A stretch of 64,000 bases of DNA from a bacterium (GCA_021781995.1 JAJXVT010000003.1:3112-67111), one strand, 5' to 3'; positions 562 through 59,278 are shown, counted from the first letter of the stretch. The notes: generated from the sequence alone by a model not told the origin. Numbers and translations: made by a program.

Positions 562-2373
562 TTAGTCACATTTTGAAAATTTACCAAGTTTGGCTTCTGA
601 TAACGCGAGTAAATCTTTTGAACTCATAATAATTGACTCTGTTGACAAGCCACAGTTGAACGCGATGATTTCTTCTTGTAAAACGAGCTGATCGAGATAA
701 TTATCAACGTTGATGAGATTTCCAAAAGGAGGTACTCCACCAACGATAAGACCATAGCGTTCCTCGATTGCAGCAGGAGATTCAAACTCACATTTTTCTC
801 CGACAGCTTCTTGTACTGCCTTCATATCTAGCTTAAGGTGGGCTGGGATATTGAATTGATAGTTTTTTTTCGAAGATTTACCTCGTACGATCAACGCTTT
901 AACGCCTTGTTCTATACGTGTATCTCGAGTAGATGAGGAATGGAGCGCGGATGGAGTTGGAGCATGCTGCATATGCTCAAACGATATTTTTTGTTGATTG
1001 AGACGTCGTATCATGTCATTGCCAATATTTTCTCCACCAAAAAAGATGTGCGCTTTGAGTCGATTGCCAGCTATTCTTTTCGTATCAGATGGAAACAGCG
1101 ACGCTTCTCGAATGTTTTTGAGTTTTAACAATGTCATTGTTAATCGCTCTAATCCCATGCCAAATCCTCCATGCGGTGGCATTCCGTATTTAAAAATACT
1201 TAAATAATCGCCGAAATTGGCGGGATCCATTTGTTTTAAATAAAGCCCTTCGAGCATGGATTGAAAAGTGTGGCGTCTTTGCCCCCCTGATGTGATTTCT
1301 GTACCAGCGCAAAGGAGGTCAAACGTATTCGTAAGTTCAGGCTGATCGTCCGTCGGATAAGCATAAAAAGGACGCTTGATTGTTTTCCAGTCCGTAACAA
1401 AAACAAGATCTGTATTGCGCGTTTCAAAGGCCCATGTGCAAAGTTCTCTTTCTGCGGCAGGACTCAGGTCGGGCTCGTTGCGTTCATCGACGCCTGTACG
1501 TTCAAAATACAGTTGTTGCGCTTCAGCAAATGTAAGCCGTGGAAAGGGGACATCTTGCGGAGCCGAAATGATGCGGCCTCCGAGGGTTTCGATTTCTGCT
1601 GCGCAATGAGCATGTAAATATTGTACAATGAATTTAATACATTGTTCTTGGACGTCTAAAATATCGCGCCAAGTTTTGAAAAATCCCATCTCGAACTCAA
1701 GTTGTTTACCTTCCGAAAGATGTCTTGAGGTTTGAGAAGGTTCTGCTCTAAAAAAGGGCATAAGTGCAAACACTCTTTCATTGACGCCAACCATTATTTG
1801 CTTATAGAGCTGGCTGCTTTGCGCTAAGGTTGCAGGATACCCAAAATAGTCGACATTGAAAAATTCAGCGCCTCCTTCGGAAGAGGCCCCAATCATGTTG
1901 GGAGCAAAATATTCTACGGCTTTTATTTCATCGTGCATGAATAAGCGATAAGCATGTGCAATATCGGCTTGAATTCGAAAAACTGCTGCGATTTGTCTAT
2001 TGCGCAATGCGATAGGCCTGTGATCCAGAACAAAATCGAGGTCTGCATGAACTTCGGGTTTGTAATATTCTAGAGGAGGCACTTCGCGAATAGGGTTTTC
2101 AACAAAAATGGATGGCTCGATGATCTCAGCCTTTGACTGAGATTCTTGAGAAGAGACGGCCTTACCACGGATTGTTAAAATTGAACCGGGGTGAAGACCA
2201 TCGAGTTTGCGGGCTTCATCCTTGCTTTCGATGACGACTTGTGCAAATCCACTGCGATCTCGCAAAATGAGGAAAGTGAGCCTCCCGAATGCTCGGGTAT
2301 TGTTCAGCCATCCCCTCAAAAGGACCGGTTCCCCGATCCTGTTCGGCAATTCATTAGCAAGGATGCGTTCCAT
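562..2373 (-). CDS. Class IIb aspartyl(/asparaginyl)-tRNA synthetase, archaeal/eukaryal-type core, fused to a C-terminal YbaK/ProX-like aminoacyl-tRNA deacylase domain
   Basis: aa 1-~437 hold an OB anticodon-binding domain and the catalytic core, with motif 2 FFRAEPSQTSRHLSE and motif 3 GMPPHGGFGMGLERL, and no bacterial GAD insertion. aa ~448-603 (nt ~565-1032) match the YbaK pattern: KALIVRG...LKLDMKAV...GLIVGGVPPFG...IIAFNCG. Confidence 0.75.
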   Translation of the reverse strand: MERILANELPNRIGEPVLLRGWLNNTRAFGRLTFLILRDRSGFAQVVIESKDEARKLDGLHPGSILTIRGKAVSSQESQSKAEIIEPSIFVENPIREVPPLEYYKPEVHADLDFVLDHRPIALRNRQIAAVFRIQADIAHAYRLFMHDEIKAVEYFAPNMIGASSEGGAEFFNVDYFGYPATLAQSSQLYKQIMVGVNERVFALMPFFRAEPSQTSRHLSEGKQLEFEMGFFKTWRDILDVQEQCIKFIVQYLHAHCAAEIETLGGRIISAPQDVPFPRLTFAEAQQLYFERTGVDERNEPDLSPAAERELCTWAFETRNTDLVFVTDWKTIKRPFYAYPTDDQPELTNTFDLLCAGTEITSGGQRRHTFQSMLEGLYLKQMDPANFGDYLSIFKYGMPPHGGFGMGLERLTMTLLKLKNIREASLFPSDTKRIAGNRLKAHIFFGGENIGNDMIRRLNQQKISFEHMQHAPTPSALHSSSTRDTRIEQGVKALIVRGKSSKKNYQFNIPAHLKLDMKAVQEAVGEKCEFESPAAIEERYGLIVGGVPPFGNLINVDNYLDQLVLQEEIIAFNCGLSTESIIMSSKDLLALSEAKLGKFSKCD

Positions 2374-2381
2374 AAAACCTC

Positions 2382-4490
2382 TTAATGGTGAGCTTCTTGA
2401 GGATTTAATACCTTGTGGCTTAAACGGATTTGACCGCGGTCGTTGATGTCGATTACTTTTACATCGATCATATCGCCTTCTTTGAAAGGAGCATCATGAA
2501 TATTTGCGATTCTTTTGTGAGAGATTTCTGAAATATGGCATAGCCCTTCTTTTCCAAAGATTTCAACAAAGTAGCCAAAAGGTACGACTGATACAATTTT
2601 CCCGTGATATATTTGGCCGATTTCAACTTCTGCTGTTAGGTTGAAAATGATCTTCTTGGCTTTTTCCATTGCTTCGCCATTATTGGATGCGATGCTGACC
2701 AACCCGCTATCATTGATGTCGATTTGCACTCCGGTCTCTTCGATGATCGCTCGAATTTGTTTGCCACCGGGCCCGATTACAATGCCAATTTTACTTGGTT
2801 TGATTTGCATAGTTTCGATGCGTGGGGCGTAAGCTGACATTTCAGCTTTTGAGTGTGGGCAAACGGAAGTCATTTTATTCAAGATATGTGAACGCCCTTC
2901 TTTAGCTTGAGCTAATGCTGCGCGCATAATATCGATCGTAATCCCTTCCACTTTAATATCCATTTGAAATGCAGTGATGCCATTTGCATCGCCGGTAACT
3001 TTAAAGTCCATGTCGCCCAAAGCATCTTCAGCCCCGAGAATATCGGATAAAATTGCAAATTGGGAACCTTCGAGAATTAGTCCCATGGCGATACCTGATA
3101 CTGGACGTTTAATAGGAACTCCTGCATCCATCATTGCAAGGCAACCACCGCAAACGGAGGCCATAGAGGAAGAACCATTTGATTCAGTGATATTCGATTC
3201 AAGACGGATTACGTAAGGGAATTGCTCTTGTGCGGGCAAAATAGCTGTTAAAGCTCTTTCTGCGAGTTTTCCGTGTCCGATTTCACGTCGTCCGGGAGAT
3301 CCGATTCTCCCTACTTCTCCTACTGAAAATGGCGGGAATGAGTATTGTAGATAAAAACGCTGTAGCCCTTCTCCATGCAAATCTTCAAAGCGTTGGCCAG
3401 AAGTTTCGCCGCCTAATGTGCAGACTGCAATAGTTTGCGTTTCTCCACGGGTAAAGAGTGAGCTTCCGTGGGTTCTAGGCAAAACTGCTTGATCGATAGT
3501 AATAGGCCTAATGTCTTTCAATCCACGGCCATCTAGTCGTTTTTTTTCGTCTAAGACCATTTTTCGCATTAGCGAAGATTGTAGGTTTTTATAAGCGAGC
3601 GCTACATCAACTTTAGCATATAAAGGCTCAGCTCCTTCTGGAAATAAAGATTTCATTACTGTTTCTTTGATTTCGGCCAGTGCTTTTTCTCGTTCTAATT
3701 TTGCGCTGATTTGCAACGATGATTCGATGAGTGTTGCTGCGGCTGCATTTACAGCGTGAGTCACTGCGCTAGGAATTGGGCGCAATGTATCTAATTTTTT
3801 AGGTTTTCCTATTTTTTCGGCCCAATGTTTTAGATGGGAGCAAATAGATGCAATAGCTTTATGGCCGGTTTCGATTGCGTTTAACACTTGGTCTTCGGTT
3901 AAAAAACTGCAAAATCCTTCAATCATTAACACGGCATCTTCTGTTCCTGCAATCACGAGATCGAGTGTTGATTGTTTCATTTCTTCGGGAGAAGGATTCA
4001 ATACAAATTCGCCATTGAGCATTCCCACGCGGACAGCGCCGATAGGTTTGATGAGCGGGATGTCAGAGATCGTTAATGCAGCCGATGCTGCGTTGATGGC
4101 AAGGACGTCGGGGGAGTGTGTCCCATCATATGAAAATACATAAGCGAGCAATTGTACTTCATTATAATAACCGTCTGCGAACATTGGACGCAGAGGGCGG
4201 TCGATCAAGCGCGATGTTAAGATTTCTCGTTCGGCAGGACGGCCTTCGCGTTTGATAAAGCCGGCCGCTGTACGGCCTACGGATGAATATTTTTCTTGGT
4301 AGTCAACTCGGAGAGGAAAAAAATCGATTTCTGCACTAGCGGTAGGGGCTGCGCAAGCAGAGGCAAGAACTACTGTATCGCCGCAGTGGGCAAATACTGC
4401 ACCGTTGGCCTGTCTTGCGACTTTACCTGTTTCAAATGTAATAGTAGAACGCCCGACTGGAATTTGGATTGTGTGTTTGTGTTGTGTCAT
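2382..4490 (-). CDS. pnp: Polyribonucleotide nucleotidyltransferase (PNPase)
   Basis: 702 aa with two RNase PH-like domains, KH and a C-terminal S1 domain (GKIVSVVPFGYFVEIFGKEGLCHISE). Classical rpsO-pnp arrangement. Confidence 0.95.
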   Translation of the reverse strand: MTQHKHTIQIPVGRSTITFETGKVARQANGAVFAHCGDTVVLASACAAPTASAEIDFFPLRVDYQEKYSSVGRTAAGFIKREGRPAEREILTSRLIDRPLRPMFADGYYNEVQLLAYVFSYDGTHSPDVLAINAASAALTISDIPLIKPIGAVRVGMLNGEFVLNPSPEEMKQSTLDLVIAGTEDAVLMIEGFCSFLTEDQVLNAIETGHKAIASICSHLKHWAEKIGKPKKLDTLRPIPSAVTHAVNAAAATLIESSLQISAKLEREKALAEIKETVMKSLFPEGAEPLYAKVDVALAYKNLQSSLMRKMVLDEKKRLDGRGLKDIRPITIDQAVLPRTHGSSLFTRGETQTIAVCTLGGETSGQRFEDLHGEGLQRFYLQYSFPPFSVGEVGRIGSPGRREIGHGKLAERALTAILPAQEQFPYVIRLESNITESNGSSSMASVCGGCLAMMDAGVPIKRPVSGIAMGLILEGSQFAILSDILGAEDALGDMDFKVTGDANGITAFQMDIKVEGITIDIMRAALAQAKEGRSHILNKMTSVCPHSKAEMSAYAPRIETMQIKPSKIGIVIGPGGKQIRAIIEETGVQIDINDSGLVSIASNNGEAMEKAKKIIFNLTAEVEIGQIYHGKIVSVVPFGYFVEIFGKEGLCHISEISHKRIANIHDAPFKEGDMIDVKVIDINDRGQIRLSHKVLNPQEAHH

Positions 4491-51393: not shown

Positions 51394-52941
51394 TCAGAGC
51401 GCTGCAGTTTGCGCCGCAGCAACGCGTGCCGCTTCATCAGCTTTTGCGTATGCCGCTGCAACTGCAGCTAAGCTTCCTGGTTTTCCCCCTGTTGCAACTG
51501 TCGCGGCAGGTACTGGGGAATGTAGTGGATTAGGTTCCAAGCCTGTTGGTCTAACCTCGGAGGCTCGCCTGCTTGGGGCGCTAGATGATGGTATTTGGGA
51601 AGATTGAGAGGGGGAGGAAAGTGTGTCAAAAAATGTTGTCAATGCTGAGCGATCTGTCTCATTGAAAAAGATGGGAAGAAATTCGTCTCTGTCCACTTGA
51701 ATAGACAATTTGTTGGTTGATGAATCTCTTAGTAAGGTTACTGGAACCGTTGAATATTGATTGTTGCCAACAATGAGACGTATGCCTGTGGTGCCATTTT
51801 TACGTATGGCTTGCAACTTATAGATCATCATTTTGGCATAAGGTTCATCAGCAGGGGTAGCTAGCGTTTTCATCACTTCTATTACCGGACCTAATTCTGT
51901 AGATAAGGTTTCTGCACTGGATGATGGCTGTAAGGAAAGATCGACTGTATTTTGATATCGAAACTCTTTTGTATGTATTAATTCGTGTGGGATAAGCCAC
52001 GTCCAATAAGTAAATCCTAACATACCTGCAACAGGAATTACTATTCCAGCGGCAGCAATGGCTGCTATGCCCGCGGTTGCTGTCATCGCTCCTGTTGTTG
52101 TTGCGACTTGAGCGCCCGTCAAAGCGTAGGTTAAACCAACTGTCGCGGCAACGGTTAATCCGCTGCCCACTGTTGCCGCTATAAATGAATGGTTTGAAGA
52201 ATTGTATGTGAAAGAAACACCATCAGGATGCTCGGCAGTAAATATCTTGATCGAACGGATGGATTCGGATTCATTTTCTTGAGGACCATTGAGATTTGGG
52301 GAGACCCAAAAAACTTCTACTTTCGTTGCTTGCTGAAATAATGCAGCTTGCTCTGAATCCTGTTGGATTGCAGTTACAATGTCTGTCCAGGTCTTTGATG
52401 TCGGCTCTTTGCTGCCATATGGAGCGGTTTTAAGCACAGGTGTTAAAAAATGAGCTCTATCTTCTGGAGTAATAGATATCCTTCTGCTGCGTGAAACAGT
52501 TTCAGTCATTGGATTTGGAAATACATATGTTATGGAAGTACGGCGGTTATAAAGAAGGATTCTGTCCCCGGCAATCAATTGATTAACATTTGTAGTATCC
52601 GGGTCGAATGGGTGTACTAGCCCAAGTATGTTTGGATCGGTACATTTCTGCCAAGGAGAACCTGAGATATCGCGTTGAGACACATCCGATGGAGCTGCGG
52701 CCTCGAGACCTGCGCCAGCGAGAGGACCTGCTTGGGCAGCGGCAGGGGGGGAGACCTGGATTGGTGAGATGCTGTGCCCGTGAAGAGAGGAAGAGGCGGA
52801 GGCGGGGTCTGGTAAGTCAGGGGGCGAGGGCAGAGGTGGCCCACCGCAACGTATGCCAGAGGGACGACGTGTCATCTCCATCTCATTTGAGGATGGATAC
52901 CGTGAAACAGCAGGTTGTGTAACAGTCGTAGAATTACTCAT
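51394..52941 (-). CDS. Hypothetical protein with Pro/Ala/Ser-rich N-terminus and a ~64-aa bilobed hydrophobic segment (Inc-like effector candidate)
   Basis: aa 253-316 (nt ~51994-52185) read FIAATVGSGLTVAATVGLTYALTGAQVATTTGAMTATAGIAAIAAAGIVIPVAGMLGFTYWTWL. The upstream region 52942-53010 is extremely AT-rich. Confidence 0.6.
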   Translation of the reverse strand: MSNSTTVTQPAVSRYPSSNEMEMTRRPSGIRCGGPPLPSPPDLPDPASASSSLHGHSISPIQVSPPAAAQAGPLAGAGLEAAAPSDVSQRDISGSPWQKCTDPNILGLVHPFDPDTTNVNQLIAGDRILLYNRRTSITYVFPNPMTETVSRSRRISITPEDRAHFLTPVLKTAPYGSKEPTSKTWTDIVTAIQQDSEQAALFQQATKVEVFWVSPNLNGPQENESESIRSIKIFTAEHPDGVSFTYNSSNHSFIAATVGSGLTVAATVGLTYALTGAQVATTTGAMTATAGIAAIAAAGIVIPVAGMLGFTYWTWLIPHELIHTKEFRYQNTVDLSLQPSSSAETLSTELGPVIEVMKTLATPADEPYAKMMIYKLQAIRKNGTTGIRLIVGNNQYSTVPVTLLRDSSTNKLSIQVDRDEFLPIFFNETDRSALTTFFDTLSSPSQSSQIPSSSAPSRRASEVRPTGLEPNPLHSPVPAATVATGGKPGSLAAVAAAYAKADEAARVAAAQTAAL

Positions 52942-53122: not shown

Positions 53123-53974
53123 TTAATTCAAGTTTTTGTAGGGGCTATAGATCCATCCGCGGCTTGCTATATTGCAAAACCATTCAAATACACCGTCACA
53201 TTCTTCGATTAAAGGCTGTATATTATCGAGGCGCGTGCCGTGTTGAAATTCTTGTAAAATTTGATAACGAGCCATGGACATCTCTTCAAAACAATCTTGA
53301 TCAGCATTGCGAAACAAGACAAACTGAGAGATAGAGGAAGGTATTGAGAGTTTTGGGAAATCGTTTTGTTGCCAGTGATCGCAAGAATTTTTTAAAAGCT
53401 GTGATCGAAATTCCAAAATGGCCATCGTGGTTTTAGTCAATACAACGAAAGGCTGTAAAGCTAAAATGCGGTTTTCTATATTTGCTCCATCTTCTGTTGA
53501 AAGCGGAGCATGGCGCAGCGCGTATGTGAGATTTTCGTAAAGTTGATCCAATTGCGCTAATTGTACTGCAATAGCAGCACTTTTTTCATGAATGTGTTTT
53601 GCAATCCACTCTGGTAAAGCATGGCCGATATTGGCTAAAAACCAGTGTTTTGGCCTATGATCCATTAAGTAGGGCACGGCGATTTGTTCGTTAAAATCTT
53701 TGTATCCATAAAGCCGTAACAAGCTTGGGTATAATTTTTGTAAAACATTGAGAAGCCGCCACCAATATTGTTGCTGATATAATCCTATCCGCTCTTCTGC
53801 ATTTAAATCGGGGCCTTGCTTGATGATTGCTCGTATTTTTTTACCATCTTCTTTAGCATAGATAGGAAAGCGTCCGGATTCTAAGGAATCTAAAGGCGAT
53901 GAAATAATAGATGCAAACCAGTTTTGCCGATCGCAAAGCGAGTGTTGCAGCAAGCTTTGTGGATTTATAGACAT
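53123..53974 (-). CDS. DUF2063-family protein (MbnC/HvfC/BufC-like partner of MNIO enzymes)
   Basis: RIGLYQQQYWWRLLNVLQKLYPSLLRLYGYKDFNEQIAVPYL fits the DUF2063 N-terminal block as I remember it (..vYrn....l..aL...yP....llG...F). It sits downstream of a DUF692 gene. Confidence 0.7.
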   Translation of the reverse strand: MSINPQSLLQHSLCDRQNWFASIISSPLDSLESGRFPIYAKEDGKKIRAIIKQGPDLNAEERIGLYQQQYWWRLLNVLQKLYPSLLRLYGYKDFNEQIAVPYLMDHRPKHWFLANIGHALPEWIAKHIHEKSAAIAVQLAQLDQLYENLTYALRHAPLSTEDGANIENRILALQPFVVLTKTTMAILEFRSQLLKNSCDHWQQNDFPKLSIPSSISQFVLFRNADQDCFEEMSMARYQILQEFQHGTRLDNIQPLIEECDGVFEWFCNIASRGWIYSPYKNLN

Positions 53975-53977
53975 AAT

Positions 53978-54144
53978 AGACCTCTTTCGAAACTAGGGTT
54001 CTGTCGATTTTCGGGTTCTTTTGAGCCGCTGTTCGATTTAAATTTTAGGGGCCATATTCCCATCCATATTGCCCCTAAAATTTAAATCGAACAGCGGCCA
54101 AAATAATCCCAAAAAGCGACGAATCCTAGTTTCGAAAGAGGTCT
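53978..54144. repeat. 167-bp near-perfect palindromic (MITE/REP-like) element between the DUF692 and DUF2063 genes
   Basis: Terminal 20-bp arms agacctctttcgaaactagg (53978-53997) and cctagtttcgaaagaggtct (54125-54144) are perfect. Inner 28-bp arms gccgctgttcgatttaaattttaggggc (54025-54052 / 54071-54098) are perfect with an 18-nt loop. The middle arms are imperfect. Confidence 0.85.
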
Positions 54145-54968
54145 AATGTTTCTTGTTGGAATTCTTTAGCCCGCAGAGCTTCTTTCCACGTATCTTCAAG
54201 TGGAATAAAACGATCATCCCATTCTAAAAGAGTCGAAACCCCTCGAGTTTTAGGATAGACTTGACGATAGATTTCCCAAACTTCATCGCATACTGCATGA
54301 TCGTGAGTGTCCAGAACGTAACGCCCGTAGTCAGAATGACCTGCAAGATGAATTTGCACGACGCGGTGAAGGGGAATTTGCGTGTAGTATTGCTTAGGAT
54401 TAAAACCGAGATTGCGGCTGGAAACATAGAGGTTATTGACATCGAGCATAATGGAAATATCCGCTTGTTCAACGACTTCGGATAAAAATTCCCATTCCGT
54501 CATTTCATCGTCTGTAAAATCAGCATTTGCAGATAAATTTTCTAAGGCAAATGGAATTTCTAAAAAATCTTGCACGATACGCGCTTTTTGCGCGACATAC
54601 CTTGCAACGGATTTTGTTCTAGGCAAAGGAAGTAGATCGTGAAAGTGGGCGCCGGGTAGATGTCCCCAAGAAAGGTGATCGGATAACCATGGCGTTTTGG
54701 TTTTTTGAGCCAGAGTTTTGAGTTGGCGAAGATAATCCCAATCTAGTGGAGCGCTGCTGCCAATAGAAAGGGCTACTCCATGCATAACAACTGGGTAATG
54801 CTCTAAAATGCGCTCTAAATTATAAAGAGGAAGTCCTCCCTCCATATAATTTTCACTGATGATTTCAAACCAGTCGATAGCAGGCCACGTAGCAAAAATT
54901 TCCGGAAGATGCACCGATCGTAAACCAATGCCGATTCCTAAATTTGGAATGATTTGCTCTGTGGCCAT
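54126..54968 (-). CDS. DUF692 / MbnB-TglH-ChrH family multinuclear non-haem iron oxidative enzyme (MNIO)
   Basis: GIGIGLRSVH, IDWFEIISENYM, VMHGVALSIGS, WLSDHLSW, HDLLPLPRT, FALENLS, MLDVNNLYVSS, IHLAGH, LDTHDH and LLEWDD follow the UPF0276/DUF692 TIM-barrel pattern end to end. Confidence 0.88.
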   Translation of the reverse strand: MATEQIIPNLGIGIGLRSVHLPEIFATWPAIDWFEIISENYMEGGLPLYNLERILEHYPVVMHGVALSIGSSAPLDWDYLRQLKTLAQKTKTPWLSDHLSWGHLPGAHFHDLLPLPRTKSVARYVAQKARIVQDFLEIPFALENLSANADFTDDEMTEWEFLSEVVEQADISIMLDVNNLYVSSRNLGFNPKQYYTQIPLHRVVQIHLAGHSDYGRYVLDTHDHAVCDEVWEIYRQVYPKTRGVSTLLEWDDRFIPLEDTWKEALRAKEFQQETLDLFRN

Positions 54969-54977
54969 AAATATCTC

Positions 54978-55193
54978 TCAGTGTGTCAAAGCATCGCGCT
55001 TTGCTTGAGTCGCTCCACTTTGAGTTTCAGTATTTGTTGAGCTATTGCATCCGCTGCTGCCGCCGCAAGAAGACGTTTGGCTTGAACAGCTGCTTTTGTC
55101 TGCGTCTTTTTTTTCTTCGCGAGTGCAGCCGCATACGGCGGTGCCCATTGCAAGACCCATCAAAGCCATTTTGAAAACATCTTTTTTATTCAT
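54978..55193 (-). CDS. 71-aa secreted/lipoprotein-type Cys- and Ser-rich peptide, candidate MNIO substrate (RiPP-like precursor)
   Basis: MNKKDVFKMALMGLAMGTAVCGC|TREEKKDADKSSCSSQTSSCGGSSGCNSSTNTETQSGATQAKRDALTH. It has a signal peptide with a lipobox-like VCGC and core Cys residues at aa 36, 43 and 49. A strong SD (GGAAGGAG) precedes the ATG, and the stop is 9 nt before the DUF692 start. Confidence 0.65.
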   Translation of the reverse strand: MNKKDVFKMALMGLAMGTAVCGCTREEKKDADKSSCSSQTSSCGGSSGCNSSTNTETQSGATQAKRDALTH

Positions 55194-55248
55194 GTTCTAC
55201 TACTCCTTCCCCTTGAGTTTTTTAATTTTCTTATAGAATCTCTTTCGA

Positions 55249-55276
55249 TATATAAAAAAAACTGGTTTTTTGTCAA
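55249..55276 (-). promoter_or_regulatory. Candidate sigma70-type promoter of the peptide-DUF692-DUF2063 operon (coordinates +/-1)
   Basis: On the minus strand, TTGACA, a 16-nt A/T-rich spacer, then TATATA, about 55 nt upstream of the ATG at 55193. Confidence 0.3.
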
Positions 55277-55343: not shown

Positions 55344-56237
55344 GTGAATATGTCGATTGATAAGCGCTATCTTCAGAGCGTTTTTTTTATGTTGCTGTCT
55401 TCGGTTGGCTTGACAATTACCGGTTTGCTGGCAAAAGTTGGTTTTCAAACCTTAACGTTAAATAGTCTTGTTTTTTGGCGTTTTTTTGTGTCCTTTTTGA
55501 TATGCCTGTCACTTCTATGGTTATTTCGTAAATTGGATGAAGAAGTTGATTTAGGTCAGATTAAATCTCATGTTTTGCGGGCGATTTTTTTGCTTCTTTC
55601 GCAATATTCGTTTTATTATTATTTAGAGAAAGCCACTTTATTAGATGCTGTGGCATTGTTGAATACAGGTCCGTTATTTATTCCTATGCTTGAGCGTTGG
55701 ATTATAGGTACTCGCGTACCTATGTCGGCTTGGGTAGGCATATTAGTTTCGTTTCTAGGTGTGATGTTAGTACTGCAGCCTGAAAATAGCATTATTGCAT
55801 GGATAGGTTTATTGGGCCTTTTTGGGGGATTTTGCCAGGGAATGTCGCAAGTTTTGTTTGGTATGAATACAAAACGCGAAGCATCGGATATTGGTGTGTT
55901 TGTTTTGATGTTATTGCTAGCTGTGTTTAGCGCGATTCCTTATTTTTTATCCGGCGATCGCACTTTAGTGGAAGGGCAGGAGCTGGATTGGTCGGTTATT
56001 GGTATCTTAATAGGTCTTGGAGTTGCTTCTGTCGCCAACCAACTATTTCGTGCAGAGGCATATAAAAGAGAGAGTCCATCTCGATTAGCTGCATTTTTAT
56101 ATATATCAGTTTTATTAGCTGGTCTGTTTGACTGGTGTTTTTTAGGTGTTGTTCCGGATTTTGTTTCAATAGTTGGCGCAGTGTTGATTATTTTAGGTGG
56201 GATAATTAAAGTTTATTATGGGACTGTCCAATCATAA
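55344..56237 (+). CDS. EamA/DMT-superfamily transporter
   Basis: 297 aa with about 10 TM helices in two similar halves; divergent from the MNIO operon. My hand count of the T-run near 55381 disagreed by 1 nt with the ORF track, so the track coordinates are kept. Confidence 0.65.
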   Translation: MNMSIDKRYLQSVFFMLLSSVGLTITGLLAKVGFQTLTLNSLVFWRFFVSFLICLSLLWLFRKLDEEVDLGQIKSHVLRAIFLLLSQYSFYYYLEKATLLDAVALLNTGPLFIPMLERWIIGTRVPMSAWVGILVSFLGVMLVLQPENSIIAWIGLLGLFGGFCQGMSQVLFGMNTKREASDIGVFVLMLLLAVFSAIPYFLSGDRTLVEGQELDWSVIGILIGLGVASVANQLFRAEAYKRESPSRLAAFLYISVLLAGLFDWCFLGVVPDFVSIVGAVLIILGGIIKVYYGTVQS

Positions 56238-58033: not shown

Positions 58034-59278
58034 GTGACTGTTTCCCGTCTACCAGCTATTAGTTTTTTTTATTCATCCGAGCAACCTAAAGAAATCGTGC
58101 GCGAAGGATTTTTTGAAGCTCTCTTGCAAAGGATGCGAGTTGCGCCTCAAGAAGGGAAGCTTTTATGTTATAGGGTGTTTCACGAAATTTTAAGAAAAGA
58201 CGAGCCAATCATCAGCAAACTCGCTAAACGAGCTCTTCAAAATCGTTGGGATGAACTCTCTTTTCAAGAGAGAGTTCCCGCTCTTTTCGCAGCGATACAA
58301 AATCAAGAAACTAGGCTTTTTCAAACATTAGTTGTTCAGAATTTTTTAATGGATTTGTATTCCGAAGATCTCGGGTCTATTTTTTTATGGATCGCGCATG
58401 TTGGCAATGCAGAAATGGTCCGAGTTTTTTTGTGGAAAACGAGAGTTCCTCCTCAGTTGCGCGCGGATGCTTTGTTGCGTGCTGCGGATCGCGGATCTGA
58501 AGAATTAGTATATTCTCTTATGAAAGACAGTCAGATCTCAATGGGTACTTTTTGCAAAGGTTTGATTGCCGCAGCGGAAAGTGGATCTATCAAAACTGTG
58601 CAATTGTTTATAAATCATGTACAATCTGCAAATATACCTTCTCAAGCAACGCATAAGGCCTTTTGCGAGGCTTCCAAAAAAGGCCATGTTGCGATACTCC
58701 AGCTTCTTGTAGCATCCAAATTTTTTGCTCACATGAATAATAGGAGTTTTAACGCCGCCGTTTTAACTGCGGTCTATCATGGACACTACAGCGCCCTTGT
58801 ATACTTGCTCTCTCTTCGGGATTATTTTTTAGATGTCGCATTGGATACTTATGCGGCAGTTTTAAATATCTGTTCCGAGGAAGGGTTGTTCGATATTGTG
58901 GAAGAATTGATCAGCTTTCCTCATTACGAACAAATTTCAATTCCAAATCTAGGAAATGCCTTTGTGTTAGCTGCGCAAAATGGACGTTGTCGGGTGATTG
59001 ATGCTTTTATCAATTCTGAACGATTTGAAAGCATGGCTGTCGATGATTTTATACGTGCTTGGGGTTTATCTGCTTCGTTGGGTTTTTTTGACACTATCGA
59101 GCGTTTAATGCAATGCGATCGTGTAGAGCAAGTACCTGTAGATCAGTTTGAGATTGTCTTTTCAGTAGTTCTTTCTAATGGCTATTGCGATATTGCCCAT
59201 CTTTTGATTCAAATGCCTCAATTCCATGCAATTTCTCCTGTTCTTTTGGAATATTATTTGAATTGTTCCAGTCAATAA
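58034..59278 (+). CDS. Degenerate ankyrin-like repeat protein (effector candidate)
   Basis: About 8 repeats of ~30-33 aa follow the pattern ..A...G....V..L. Examples are LLRAADRGSEELVYSLM, LIAAAESGSIKTVQLFI, FCEASKKGHVAILQLLV and VLAAQNGRCRVIDAFI. GTG start. Confidence 0.5.
   Translation: MTVSRLPAISFFYSSEQPKEIVREGFFEALLQRMRVAPQEGKLLCYRVFHEILRKDEPIISKLAKRALQNRWDELSFQERVPALFAAIQNQETRLFQTLVVQNFLMDLYSEDLGSIFLWIAHVGNAEMVRVFLWKTRVPPQLRADALLRAADRGSEELVYSLMKDSQISMGTFCKGLIAAAESGSIKTVQLFINHVQSANIPSQATHKAFCEASKKGHVAILQLLVASKFFAHMNNRSFNAAVLTAVYHGHYSALVYLLSLRDYFLDVALDTYAAVLNICSEEGLFDIVEELISFPHYEQISIPNLGNAFVLAAQNGRCRVIDAFINSERFESMAVDDFIRAWGLSASLGFFDTIERLMQCDRVEQVPVDQFEIVFSVVLSNGYCDIAHLLIQMPQFHAISPVLLEYYLNCSSQ

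Follow-up and report, generated by a model that had tools for sequence, protein, structure and literature searches.

A candidate bufferin-type operon with a reduced, lipoprotein-type precursor in an environmental chlamydia

The stretch GCA_021781995.1 JAJXVT010000003.1:3112-67111 (64,000 nucleotides, all of which is meant by "the window" below) carries three co-directional genes on its minus strand, encoding a short Cys/Ser-rich peptide, an enzyme of the DUF692 or multinuclear non-heme iron oxidase (MNIO) family and a DUF2063 protein. An initial annotation made from the sequence had pointed out these genes, and the open reading frames (ORFs), with coordinates read from the window, agree with it. 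Their order, with a small precursor containing Cys residues and a signal peptide directly 5' of the enzyme gene, is the bufA-bufB-bufC order of bufferin-type biosynthetic gene clusters. Our analysis suggests that the locus is an operon for a ribosomally made peptide with post-translational modifications (RiPP) of this type, with an unusually small precursor. Its features are as follows.

55249..55276, minus strand: candidate sigma-70-type promoter, TTGACA-16 nt-TATATA, 5' of the peptide gene
55203..55208, minus strand: Shine-Dalgarno sequence AAGGAG, 9 nt 5' of the peptide ATG
54978..55193, minus strand: bufA-like precursor gene, 71 aa, with a lipoprotein-type signal, a Cys/Ser-rich core and a KRDAL tail
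55128..55193, minus strand: signal peptide, residues 1-22, with K3, K4 and K8 in the n-region, h-region MALMGLAMGTAV and lipobox V-C-G followed by C23
55038..55097, minus strand: core, residues 33-52, KSSCSSQTSSCGGSSGCNSS, with C36, C43 and C49 (spacing 7, 6) as the presumed MNIO targets
54987..55001, minus strand: C-terminal tail KRDAL, residues 65-69, a motif common in relatives
54126..54968, minus strand: bufB-like MNIO (DUF692) gene, 280 aa, matching PF05114
53978..54146, no strand: near-perfect palindrome of about 170 nt, formed by inverted repeats and filling the spacer between the MNIO and DUF2063 genes
53123..53974, minus strand: bufC-like partner gene, 283 aa, with a DUF2063 N-terminal domain and a C-terminal domain like a RiPP recognition element (RRE)

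The peptide stop codon lies 9 nt from the MNIO start, and the spacer between the MNIO and DUF2063 genes measures 151 nt. The Shine-Dalgarno sequence and the candidate promoter were recognized by sequence inspection; a promoter scan with a stricter consensus rule called nothing 5' of the peptide gene.

The second gene encodes a full-length DUF692 protein, as first annotated. Its product matches Pfam PF05114 (MbnB_TglH_ChrH) over profile positions 1-262 of 263 (E=1.8e-97), with a score of 326.1 bits against a cut-off of 25, and it keeps every one of the 46 columns with at least 97% conservation among 78 homologues. These near-invariant columns include H63, D97, H98, E143, D176, N179, H207, D220, H222 and E249, and we take the spacing of these His, Asp, Glu and Asn residues to be that of the MNIO metal (Fe) ligands, as in MbnB. 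The closest solved structure is that of a Haemophilus DUF692 protein (PDB 3bww, E=2.5e-43). BufB gave the highest score among NCBIfam models (303.1 bits), followed by HvfB (224.6), ApyH (92), ChrH (65) and MbnB (32.5), and the enzyme is 47-50% identical to MNIOs that are paired with canonical BufA2 precursors. Judged by these comparisons, the enzyme is a bufferin-type MNIO, not a methanobactin-type one. For BufB-clade enzymes, the expected chemistry is formation of 5-thiooxazole and not of oxazolone-thioamide (PMC11626156), an expectation that also rests on the title of 10.64898/2026.07.17.739211.

The third gene product matches DUF2063 (PF09836, E=1e-12), also as annotated; it had no match of any kind in NCBIfam and so none to MbnC. 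A sequence search of PDB returned no relevant relative, and structure prediction with Foldseek was used. The AlphaFold2 model (mean predicted local distance difference test score, 72.9) comprises a helical domain at the N-terminus and a strand/helix domain at the C-terminus. Foldseek matched this model to TglI (8hi7_A, E=2e-5), the partner of the MNIO TglH, whose fold it resembles, and to NGO1945 (3dee, E=1e-4, target-normalised TM score of 0.69), the archetypal DUF2063 plus RRE protein, which folds alike. What is encoded directly 3' of the MNIO gene is, in other words, a DUF2063 domain fused to an RRE-like domain. A DUF2063 gene occupies this place in nearly all chlamydial relatives, and the N-terminus of the window protein is conserved. 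The MNIO and its partner form an enzyme pair of the bufferin/oxazolin clade.

These two proteins bear directly on a methanobactin-like reading, in which the product would be a chalkophore whose Cys residues are converted into oxazolone-thioamide pairs within a methanobactin-like core. The initial annotation had seen such a core in the peptide. The locus does combine a short peptide, Cys residues followed by small residues and an MNIO enzyme, and the methanobactin system MbnABC is similar in that an MNIO acts on Cys residues of a ribosomal peptide to give a copper ligand. However, the window MNIO falls far short on the MbnB model (TIGR04159; cut-off, 325 bits) and scores better with BufB and HvfB, and its partner is of the DUF2063/RRE type, so that the pairing of an MbnB-type MNIO with MbnC is missing from the locus. 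MbnABC works on a leader-type precursor and yields a secreted chalkophore, whereas the window has a signal-type precursor and a product that would be a tethered buffer; a Sec/lipoprotein signal implies tethering rather than secretion. The homologous precursors described below are, moreover, Buf2-like. This reading was already disfavoured, and we consider it highly improbable; the resemblance to methanobactin cores is not supported.

The precursor has the sequence MNKKDVFKMALMGLAMGTAVCGCTREEKKDADKSSCSSQTSSCGGSSGCNSSTNTETQSGATQAKRDALTH. It satisfies the PROSITE lipoprotein pattern PS51257 at C23, with the lipobox V-C-G-C, which bears out the lipoprotein-type signal that had been proposed. Five Cys residues are present, two of them (C21 and C23) in the signal peptide and lipobox and three in the core, where each is followed by small residues as annotated (CSS at C36, CGG at C43 and CNS at C49). 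The core aligns with the CS(S/G/N)(K/Q)T..SC(K/G)GxxGC segment of relatives, and the mature peptide is probably disordered rather than a small folded domain. As anticipated, it is unlike DUF2282 (BufA1), for which neither the peptide nor its relatives gave a match; nor does it match BufA2 (NCBIfam NF050166; Buf_6/12Cys), and it has three core Cys in place of the six conserved ones of that family. The EGKCG motif of oxazolins (Buf_EGKCG) is absent from it. A word-indexed search with the peptide alone recovered only the peptide itself, and relatives were found with a family alignment.

That family is chlamydial. An ORF with a signal-peptide-like N-terminus and Cys residues ends shortly 5' of the MNIO start in 30 of 39 chlamydial loci, with gaps to the MNIO gene of down to 4-9 nt; a survey for such an ORF across Chlamydiota had been suggested in the initial annotation. 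Because the precursor ORF is 5' of the MNIO gene in these 30 loci and DUF2063 follows in nearly all, the arrangement is beyond chance. The PROSITE lipobox rule is satisfied in 16 of the 30 ORFs, and the aligned lipobox Cys is kept in 16 loci and in several database relatives. The closest relatives of the window peptide (L001-L005, L007, L012 and L021) have nearly the same N-terminus (MxKKxVxKLALxGLAxG..GC), and several of them have the same C-terminal ..KR(D/E)A..L tail. The L007 peptide is 48% identical to the window peptide and likewise has three core Cys (spacing 6, 6), while most other close relatives have a core lengthened by CKGxNGCTGKxDCTG repeats to 6-9 Cys. In more distant chlamydiae, the precursors are long and have a terminal CKGxNxCKGxGxC..NxCxGxxxCKG domain. 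Cys counts between species run from 2 to 19, which suggests rapid expansion and contraction of repeats.

When 5.8 billion proteins were searched with the family alignment as a profile, about 30 more peptides came up, all of them unnamed or "hypothetical" and lacking a Pfam domain; where a source is named, it is chlamydial. Ser/Gly-rich Cys repeats like those of the window peptide are found in P0015, P0034 and P0035, and minimal precursors with 2-3 Cys stand next to intact enzymes in other species (L007, L021, P0013 and P0029). Of 30 database relatives, 26 have a C-terminal tail of the KR(K/E)SAA type, either as KR(K/E)SAA(Q/K)KV(M/V)(E/Q)G(Y/S) or as the shorter KRxxA..L. Tails of this kind were seen in the window peptide, among P0007-P0036 and in L003, L005, L016, L033, L034 and L036. 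Such tails also occur on the long Buf2-like chlamydial precursors and not on canonical BufA2 of other phyla. In several relatives, two signal-peptide plus Cys ORFs stand in tandem 5' of one MNIO gene:

L003, 4272..4932: tandem precursor ORFs
L012, 4411..4819: tandem precursor ORFs
L015, 462..1225: tandem precursor ORFs
L034, 4076..4993: tandem precursor ORFs
L046, 1160..2047: tandem precursor ORFs

Small Cys-rich outer-membrane lipoproteins exist in Chlamydiae, and the 71-aa ORF could be read as an ordinary envelope lipoprotein of this kind (OmcA-like) that happens to lie beside an MNIO gene whose true substrate is elsewhere. That the peptide matches no RiPP precursor model would fit this reading. 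However, its place directly 5' of the MNIO gene is conserved in about 30 loci and there is no second precursor-like ORF in the window, and we regard such a lipoprotein as a very remote prospect. OmcA-like family membership was rejected as well, as neither the window peptide nor three close relatives had a Pfam match at E<=1. Its position and its lipoprotein-type signal favour the 5' peptide as the likely substrate, as originally proposed.

The chlamydial precursors grade into BufA2. With the BufA2 model (NF050166; cut-off, 60 bits), canonical precursors score 92-132 bits, long chlamydial precursors 27-41 bits and the closest relatives of the window peptide 12.6-20 bits, the sub-threshold matches of relatives ranging from E=1.5e-10 to E=0.12. 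MNIO relatives outside the phylum adjoin canonical BufA2 precursors. When mature regions were compared with hhalign, the window-type family matched canonical BufA2 with a probability of 95.8% (E=8e-9) and its reversed controls reached at most 5%; a reversed control of the chlamydial Buf2-like precursors against BufA2 also scored 93%. Since reversal is an imperfect control for quasi-palindromic Cys repeats, a shuffle test was added. The window mature region scored 11.4 bits with a family hidden Markov model (HMM) built without the window peptide, a value reached by none of 1000 composition-matched shuffles (mean, -0.4 bits; standard deviation, 2.3; maximum, 9.6). Taken by itself, the window tail was only weakly significant, as 31 of 1000 shuffles scored as high. 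The Cys spacing (7, 6) fits both the 6-residue periodicity dominant among these precursors and the Buf2-type spacing of 6, 6, 7, 6. On this evidence, the window peptide appears to belong, in reduced form, to a lineage of chlamydial precursors grading into Buf2/BufA2. This relationship rests on intermediates and on low-complexity, repeat-rich sequence, and the alignment statistics should be read cautiously. The precursor had been called unrecognised, which is right insofar as no curated model matches it; it is not a new type but a shortened member of this lineage.

The chlamydial origin of the operon-bearing genome, as proposed initially, is well supported by sequence comparison. Relatives of the MNIO were drawn from GTDB contigs (one genome per species), and the 40 closest loci, at 62-78% identity, are nearly all from metagenome-assembled genomes (MAGs) labelled Chlamydiae, Chlamydiales, Parachlamydiaceae or Waddliaceae. 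The exact 71-aa peptide is encoded on 15 metagenomic or MAG contigs, some of which are NCBI assemblies in the same third-party annotation accession series as a "Chlamydiae bacterium" MAG. From the phylum, the host would be expected to have an obligate intracellular lifestyle. The operon is 100% identical in all eight same-species contigs, which leaves no single-nucleotide polymorphisms for a population-level test of selection. L001 and L004, which have 75-76% identical MNIOs and a chlamydia-type lipoprotein precursor, come from MAGs labelled Acidobacteria/Acidobacteriota; these are probably mis-binned chlamydial contigs, horizontal transfer being less likely.

The window differs from its relatives at the junction of the second and third genes. 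The initial annotation described DUF692 as followed by DUF2063, and the order is correct, but a 151-nt near-palindromic insertion that relatives lack had been overlooked. Almost all relatives have overlapping genes at this point, the stop of the MNIO and the start of DUF2063 sharing 4-8 nt, and an overlap of 4 or 8 nt indicates translational coupling of the two genes. The RNA of the palindrome folds as a hairpin of -114.4 kcal/mol (z=-18). The MNIO gene takes its last seven codons (..LDLFRN*) from the outer arms, an ending that differs from the ..KEFQKEIIHA type seen in relatives; the arms also extend over the AAGAGG ribosome-binding region of the DUF2063 gene. The palindrome is present once in the window and, among the fetched loci, solely in those of the same species; a search of JGI metagenome contigs for its core found no exact copy. 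The insertion is specific to this lineage. The hairpin is not a canonical terminator because it lacks a U-tract, and a terminator scan found no intrinsic terminator either at the hairpin or 3' of the DUF2063 gene; an Rfam scan of the window returned only a tRNA, with no match at the hairpin. The bufC ribosome-binding site is expected to be occluded by the hairpin, which could also make the upstream message more stable. The insertion would have broken an ancestral translational coupling of bufB and bufC, and the hairpin probably lowers or regulates translation of BufC.

Four same-species contigs (L082, L085, L086 and L087) stop within the palindrome, at its border or just a few bases before it. 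A further contig, L084 (GCA_027457365.1 contig, 1455..3052), is identical up to the 3' edge of the palindrome and continues into an AbiEi_4 gene instead of DUF2063. Either a structural variant (or the boundary of a mobile element) or an artefact of assembly at the repeat would account for this junction.

A second difference from the closest relatives concerns DoxX. The absence of a DoxX gene had been noted, and there is none in the 64-kb window; this absence has no distinguishing value. Most other chlamydial loci are without DoxX, but three of the closest relatives have it next to DUF2063, two of them on the opposite strand:

L001, 6662..7078: DoxX gene
L002, 6626..7042: DoxX gene
L004, 6617..6979: DoxX gene

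This scattered distribution points to repeated gain or loss within the clade. Modification and function both proceed without DoxX, which the model buf2 cluster does not have (PMC11626156), so nothing can be concluded from its absence in the window.

The insertion and the missing DoxX could also be taken as signs of decay: the precursor would have been cut from at least six Cys to three, DoxX lost, bufB and bufC uncoupled and, in an intracellular genome undergoing reduction, the operon left non-functional or nearing loss. The closest relatives L001, L002 and L004 do have 6-9 core Cys and an adjacent DoxX, the hairpin insertion sits where relatives have overlapping genes, L084 has a different gene 3' of the palindrome and the MNIO scores slightly under the BufB cut-off. 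However, all three ORFs are intact and full length, the MNIO retains every near-invariant residue, the N-terminus of the DUF2063 protein is conserved and a strong Shine-Dalgarno sequence precedes the peptide. Minimal 2-3-Cys precursors also recur beside intact enzymes in other species, and DoxX is dispensable. We think decay unlikely.

The nearest characterised counterpart is the BufA2-BufB2-BufC2 system of Caulobacter vibrioides (PMC11626156). The two share the precursor-MNIO-DUF2063 order, the lack of DoxX, a Sec-type signal on the precursor, BufB as the best enzyme model, a DUF2063 plus RRE-like partner and Cys residues about six positions apart, and the window's precursor lineage matches BufA2 at the level of family profiles. 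They differ in that the window precursor fails the BufA2 model, has three rather than six core Cys without the CKGxNxC context, bears a lipoprotein signal instead of one for signal peptidase I and ends in a chlamydia-specific KRxxA tail; furthermore, the window bufB and bufC are split by the hairpin insertion and the MNIO falls 7 bits below the BufB cut-off. Functionally, bufferins are defined by conversion of Cys to 5-thiooxazole, high-affinity Cu binding and protection from copper stress; BufBC install the thiooxazoles and the products are exported by Sec (PMC11626156). The same 2024 paper lists the Planctomycetes-Verrucomicrobia-Chlamydiae group, including Chlamydia, among MNIO-bearing taxa (PMC11626156).

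The HvfABC oxazolin system of Haemophilus influenzae (PMC11252979; PDB 3bww is a homologue) also combines a DUF2063 partner with a signal-peptide precursor, but the window peptide has no EGKCG and its MNIO scores 225 bits on HvfB versus 303 on BufB. A closer description is found in a survey according to which bufferin-clade MNIOs are preceded, in hundreds of cases, by small ORFs that have a signal peptide and 1-18 Cys and lack a Buf1, Buf2, EGKCG or CxxxxC signature (PMC12452194). The window peptide fits these unclassified signal-peptide plus Cys ORFs before "mega-cluster" MNIOs exactly; no families were defined among them there, whereas a chlamydial family is delineated here by its signal peptide, Cys periodicity and tail. 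About 16% of Buf2 precursors have lipoprotein signals (PMC12452194). In the genome table of that study, Protochlamydia and Waddlia are entered with DUF692 and DUF2063 and no recognised precursor, and its Table S4 gives zeros for C. trachomatis (PMC12452194).

A 2026 paper reports that MNIO-modified peptides are lipidated; it names lipidated bufferins and oxazolins, of which NedA was experimentally confirmed (PMC13056109). These diacylglycerol RiPPs (DAG-RiPPs) resemble the window system in having a lipobox-bearing, MNIO-modified peptide for which cytoplasmic modification, Sec export, processing by Lgt/LspA and membrane tethering are predicted. The demonstrated cases are ChrH-type macrocycles (DybA) and an EGKCG-repeat Neisseria oxazolin, whereas the window has a BufB-type enzyme and a Ser-rich core with three Cys, and it comes from Chlamydiota, a phylum unmentioned in PMC13056109. 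A membrane-anchored, MNIO-modified copper peptide had been inferred in the initial annotation, but the concept is not new, being already contained in PMC12452194 and PMC13056109. In the literature searched on chlamydiae with DUF692 or bufferins, we found taxonomic listings and no dedicated study.

Our preferred interpretation, to which we give a probability of about 0.62, is that the locus is a bufferin-type (buf2-like) bufA-bufB-bufC RiPP operon of an environmental chlamydia, with an unusually reduced precursor and a lipid-anchored, copper-binding product. The mechanism is drawn by homology with BufABC (PMC11626156) and with lipidated MNIO products (PMC13056109). In the cytoplasm, the iron-dependent MNIO and its DUF2063/RRE partner would oxidise at least one of C36, C43 and C49 to 5-thiooxazole, a four-electron oxidation that would lower the mass by 4 Da per Cys. 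The peptide would then be exported by the Sec system, Lgt would place diacylglycerol on C23 and signal peptidase II would cut after G22; N-acylation may follow. The predicted product is a 49-residue lipopeptide tethered to the membrane in the periplasm, or at the surface, which would bind copper through thiooxazole S and N atoms and so buffer metal stress inside the host vacuole.

Several observations weigh against this interpretation. The peptide had no match at E<=1 beyond noise in Pfam or NCBIfam, including DUF2282, BufA2 and all other curated families, and, when aligned alone with the BufA2 or chlamydial Buf2-like profiles, it reached only 8-12% in hhalign, like its reversed control. Its core lacks the Lys/Gly context (CKGxNGC) of relatives and is down to three Cys. 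BufB is the best model for the MNIO by about 80 bits, though the score is 7 bits below the 310-bit cut-off of the BufB equivalog NF050167; the MNIOs of L003 and L007 likewise fall below it, at 300 bits. Finally, the hairpin insertion may impair expression of bufC, and no copper-related genes were found near the operon. The enzyme scores are graded, as chlamydial MNIOs paired with long Buf2-like precursors score 323-326 bits on BufB, canonical MNIOs 338-386 bits and the window-type enzymes, which form a slightly divergent subclade, 300-303 bits.

Some of these observations would fit a working system with another role: the ligand of a different thiophilic metal, a redox or envelope function connected with the disulfide-cross-linked outer membrane of chlamydiae, or a different modification introduced by the somewhat divergent MNIO subclade. 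The Ser-rich core without Lys/Gly differs from characterised substrates, the MNIO subclade lies under the BufB cut-off, no copper genes are nearby and the authors of PMC11626156 themselves consider other metals. However, the enzyme's identity to MNIOs paired with canonical BufA2 and the retained Cys periodicity speak against it, and there is no positive evidence for another metal or reaction. A different role seems to us distinctly unlikely.

The part of the precursor that the enzymes recognise may lie near its C-terminus. The signal peptide of BufA1 is dispensable for modification, and in Buf2 the first and last Cys are unmodified while the central four are modified (PMC11626156). Dispensability of the BufA1 signal would place recognition in the mature part, which makes the chlamydial C-terminal tail a candidate, if speculative, recognition element. 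A bolder proposal, possible but doubtful in our view, is that environmental chlamydiae have evolved a separate precursor branch in which the BufC RRE reads the conserved C-terminal KR(K/E)SAA(Q/K)K follower and not an N-terminal leader or folded core. The core would then have been free to shrink to a disordered segment with three Cys, and the window peptide would be a minimal lipid-anchored envelope thiooxazole ligand against host copper in the amoebal vacuole, and one of the rare RiPPs from a phylum of obligate intracellular bacteria.

Three further genes were noted in the window.

55344..56237, plus strand: EamA gene, divergent, adjoining the operon upstream
51394..52941, minus strand: 515-aa ORF, 181 nt downstream of the operon on the same strand
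58034..59278, plus strand: gene for a 414-aa protein with weak ankyrin-repeat matches (Pfam, taken from the identical gene in L081)

A divergent EamA gene does adjoin the operon, as had been remarked, but there is no support for giving the adjacency a meaning: among about 40 chlamydial loci, EamA is near only two, where it stands at the opposite end of the operon. A role as dedicated exporter was rejected, as the gene is not conserved and a Sec signal makes such an exporter unnecessary; for the latter reason, the adjacency is most likely incidental. In the 515-aa ORF, a long hydrophobic stretch (..GLTVAATVGLTYALTG..AGIAAIAAAGIVIPVAGMLGF..) occupies the centre, between ends rich in Pro, Ser and Ala; the ORF gave no Pfam or NCBIfam match and no tblastn match in any of 80 related loci. 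From its sequence, we take its product to be reminiscent of chlamydial inclusion-membrane or effector proteins. The 414-aa ankyrin-type protein is unrelated to the operon; ankyrin-repeat proteins are typical of amoeba-associated symbionts.

In summary, the class, the Sec route and the lipidated variants have all been published, and the general picture of MNIO systems is unchanged. The novelty is modest and lies in the delineation of a chlamydial family of precursors whose signal peptide and tail are conserved, in an extreme precursor with three Cys and a Ser-rich, probably disordered core, in a slightly divergent MNIO subclade and in the hairpin insertion. The precursor family could be used as an HMM and would fill the annotation gap in Protochlamydia and Waddlia. 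If functional, the mature peptide, with 49 residues and three Cys, would serve conveniently as a minimal substrate for studying the choice of Cys by BufB/BufC and a possible role of the conserved tail in recognition. A functional operon would also fit the idea that protozoan hosts use copper against intracellular bacteria, and it would mean that amoeba-associated chlamydiae have retained a copper-buffering RiPP of the bufferin type in spite of their genome reduction, whereas the Chlamydiaceae are without it.

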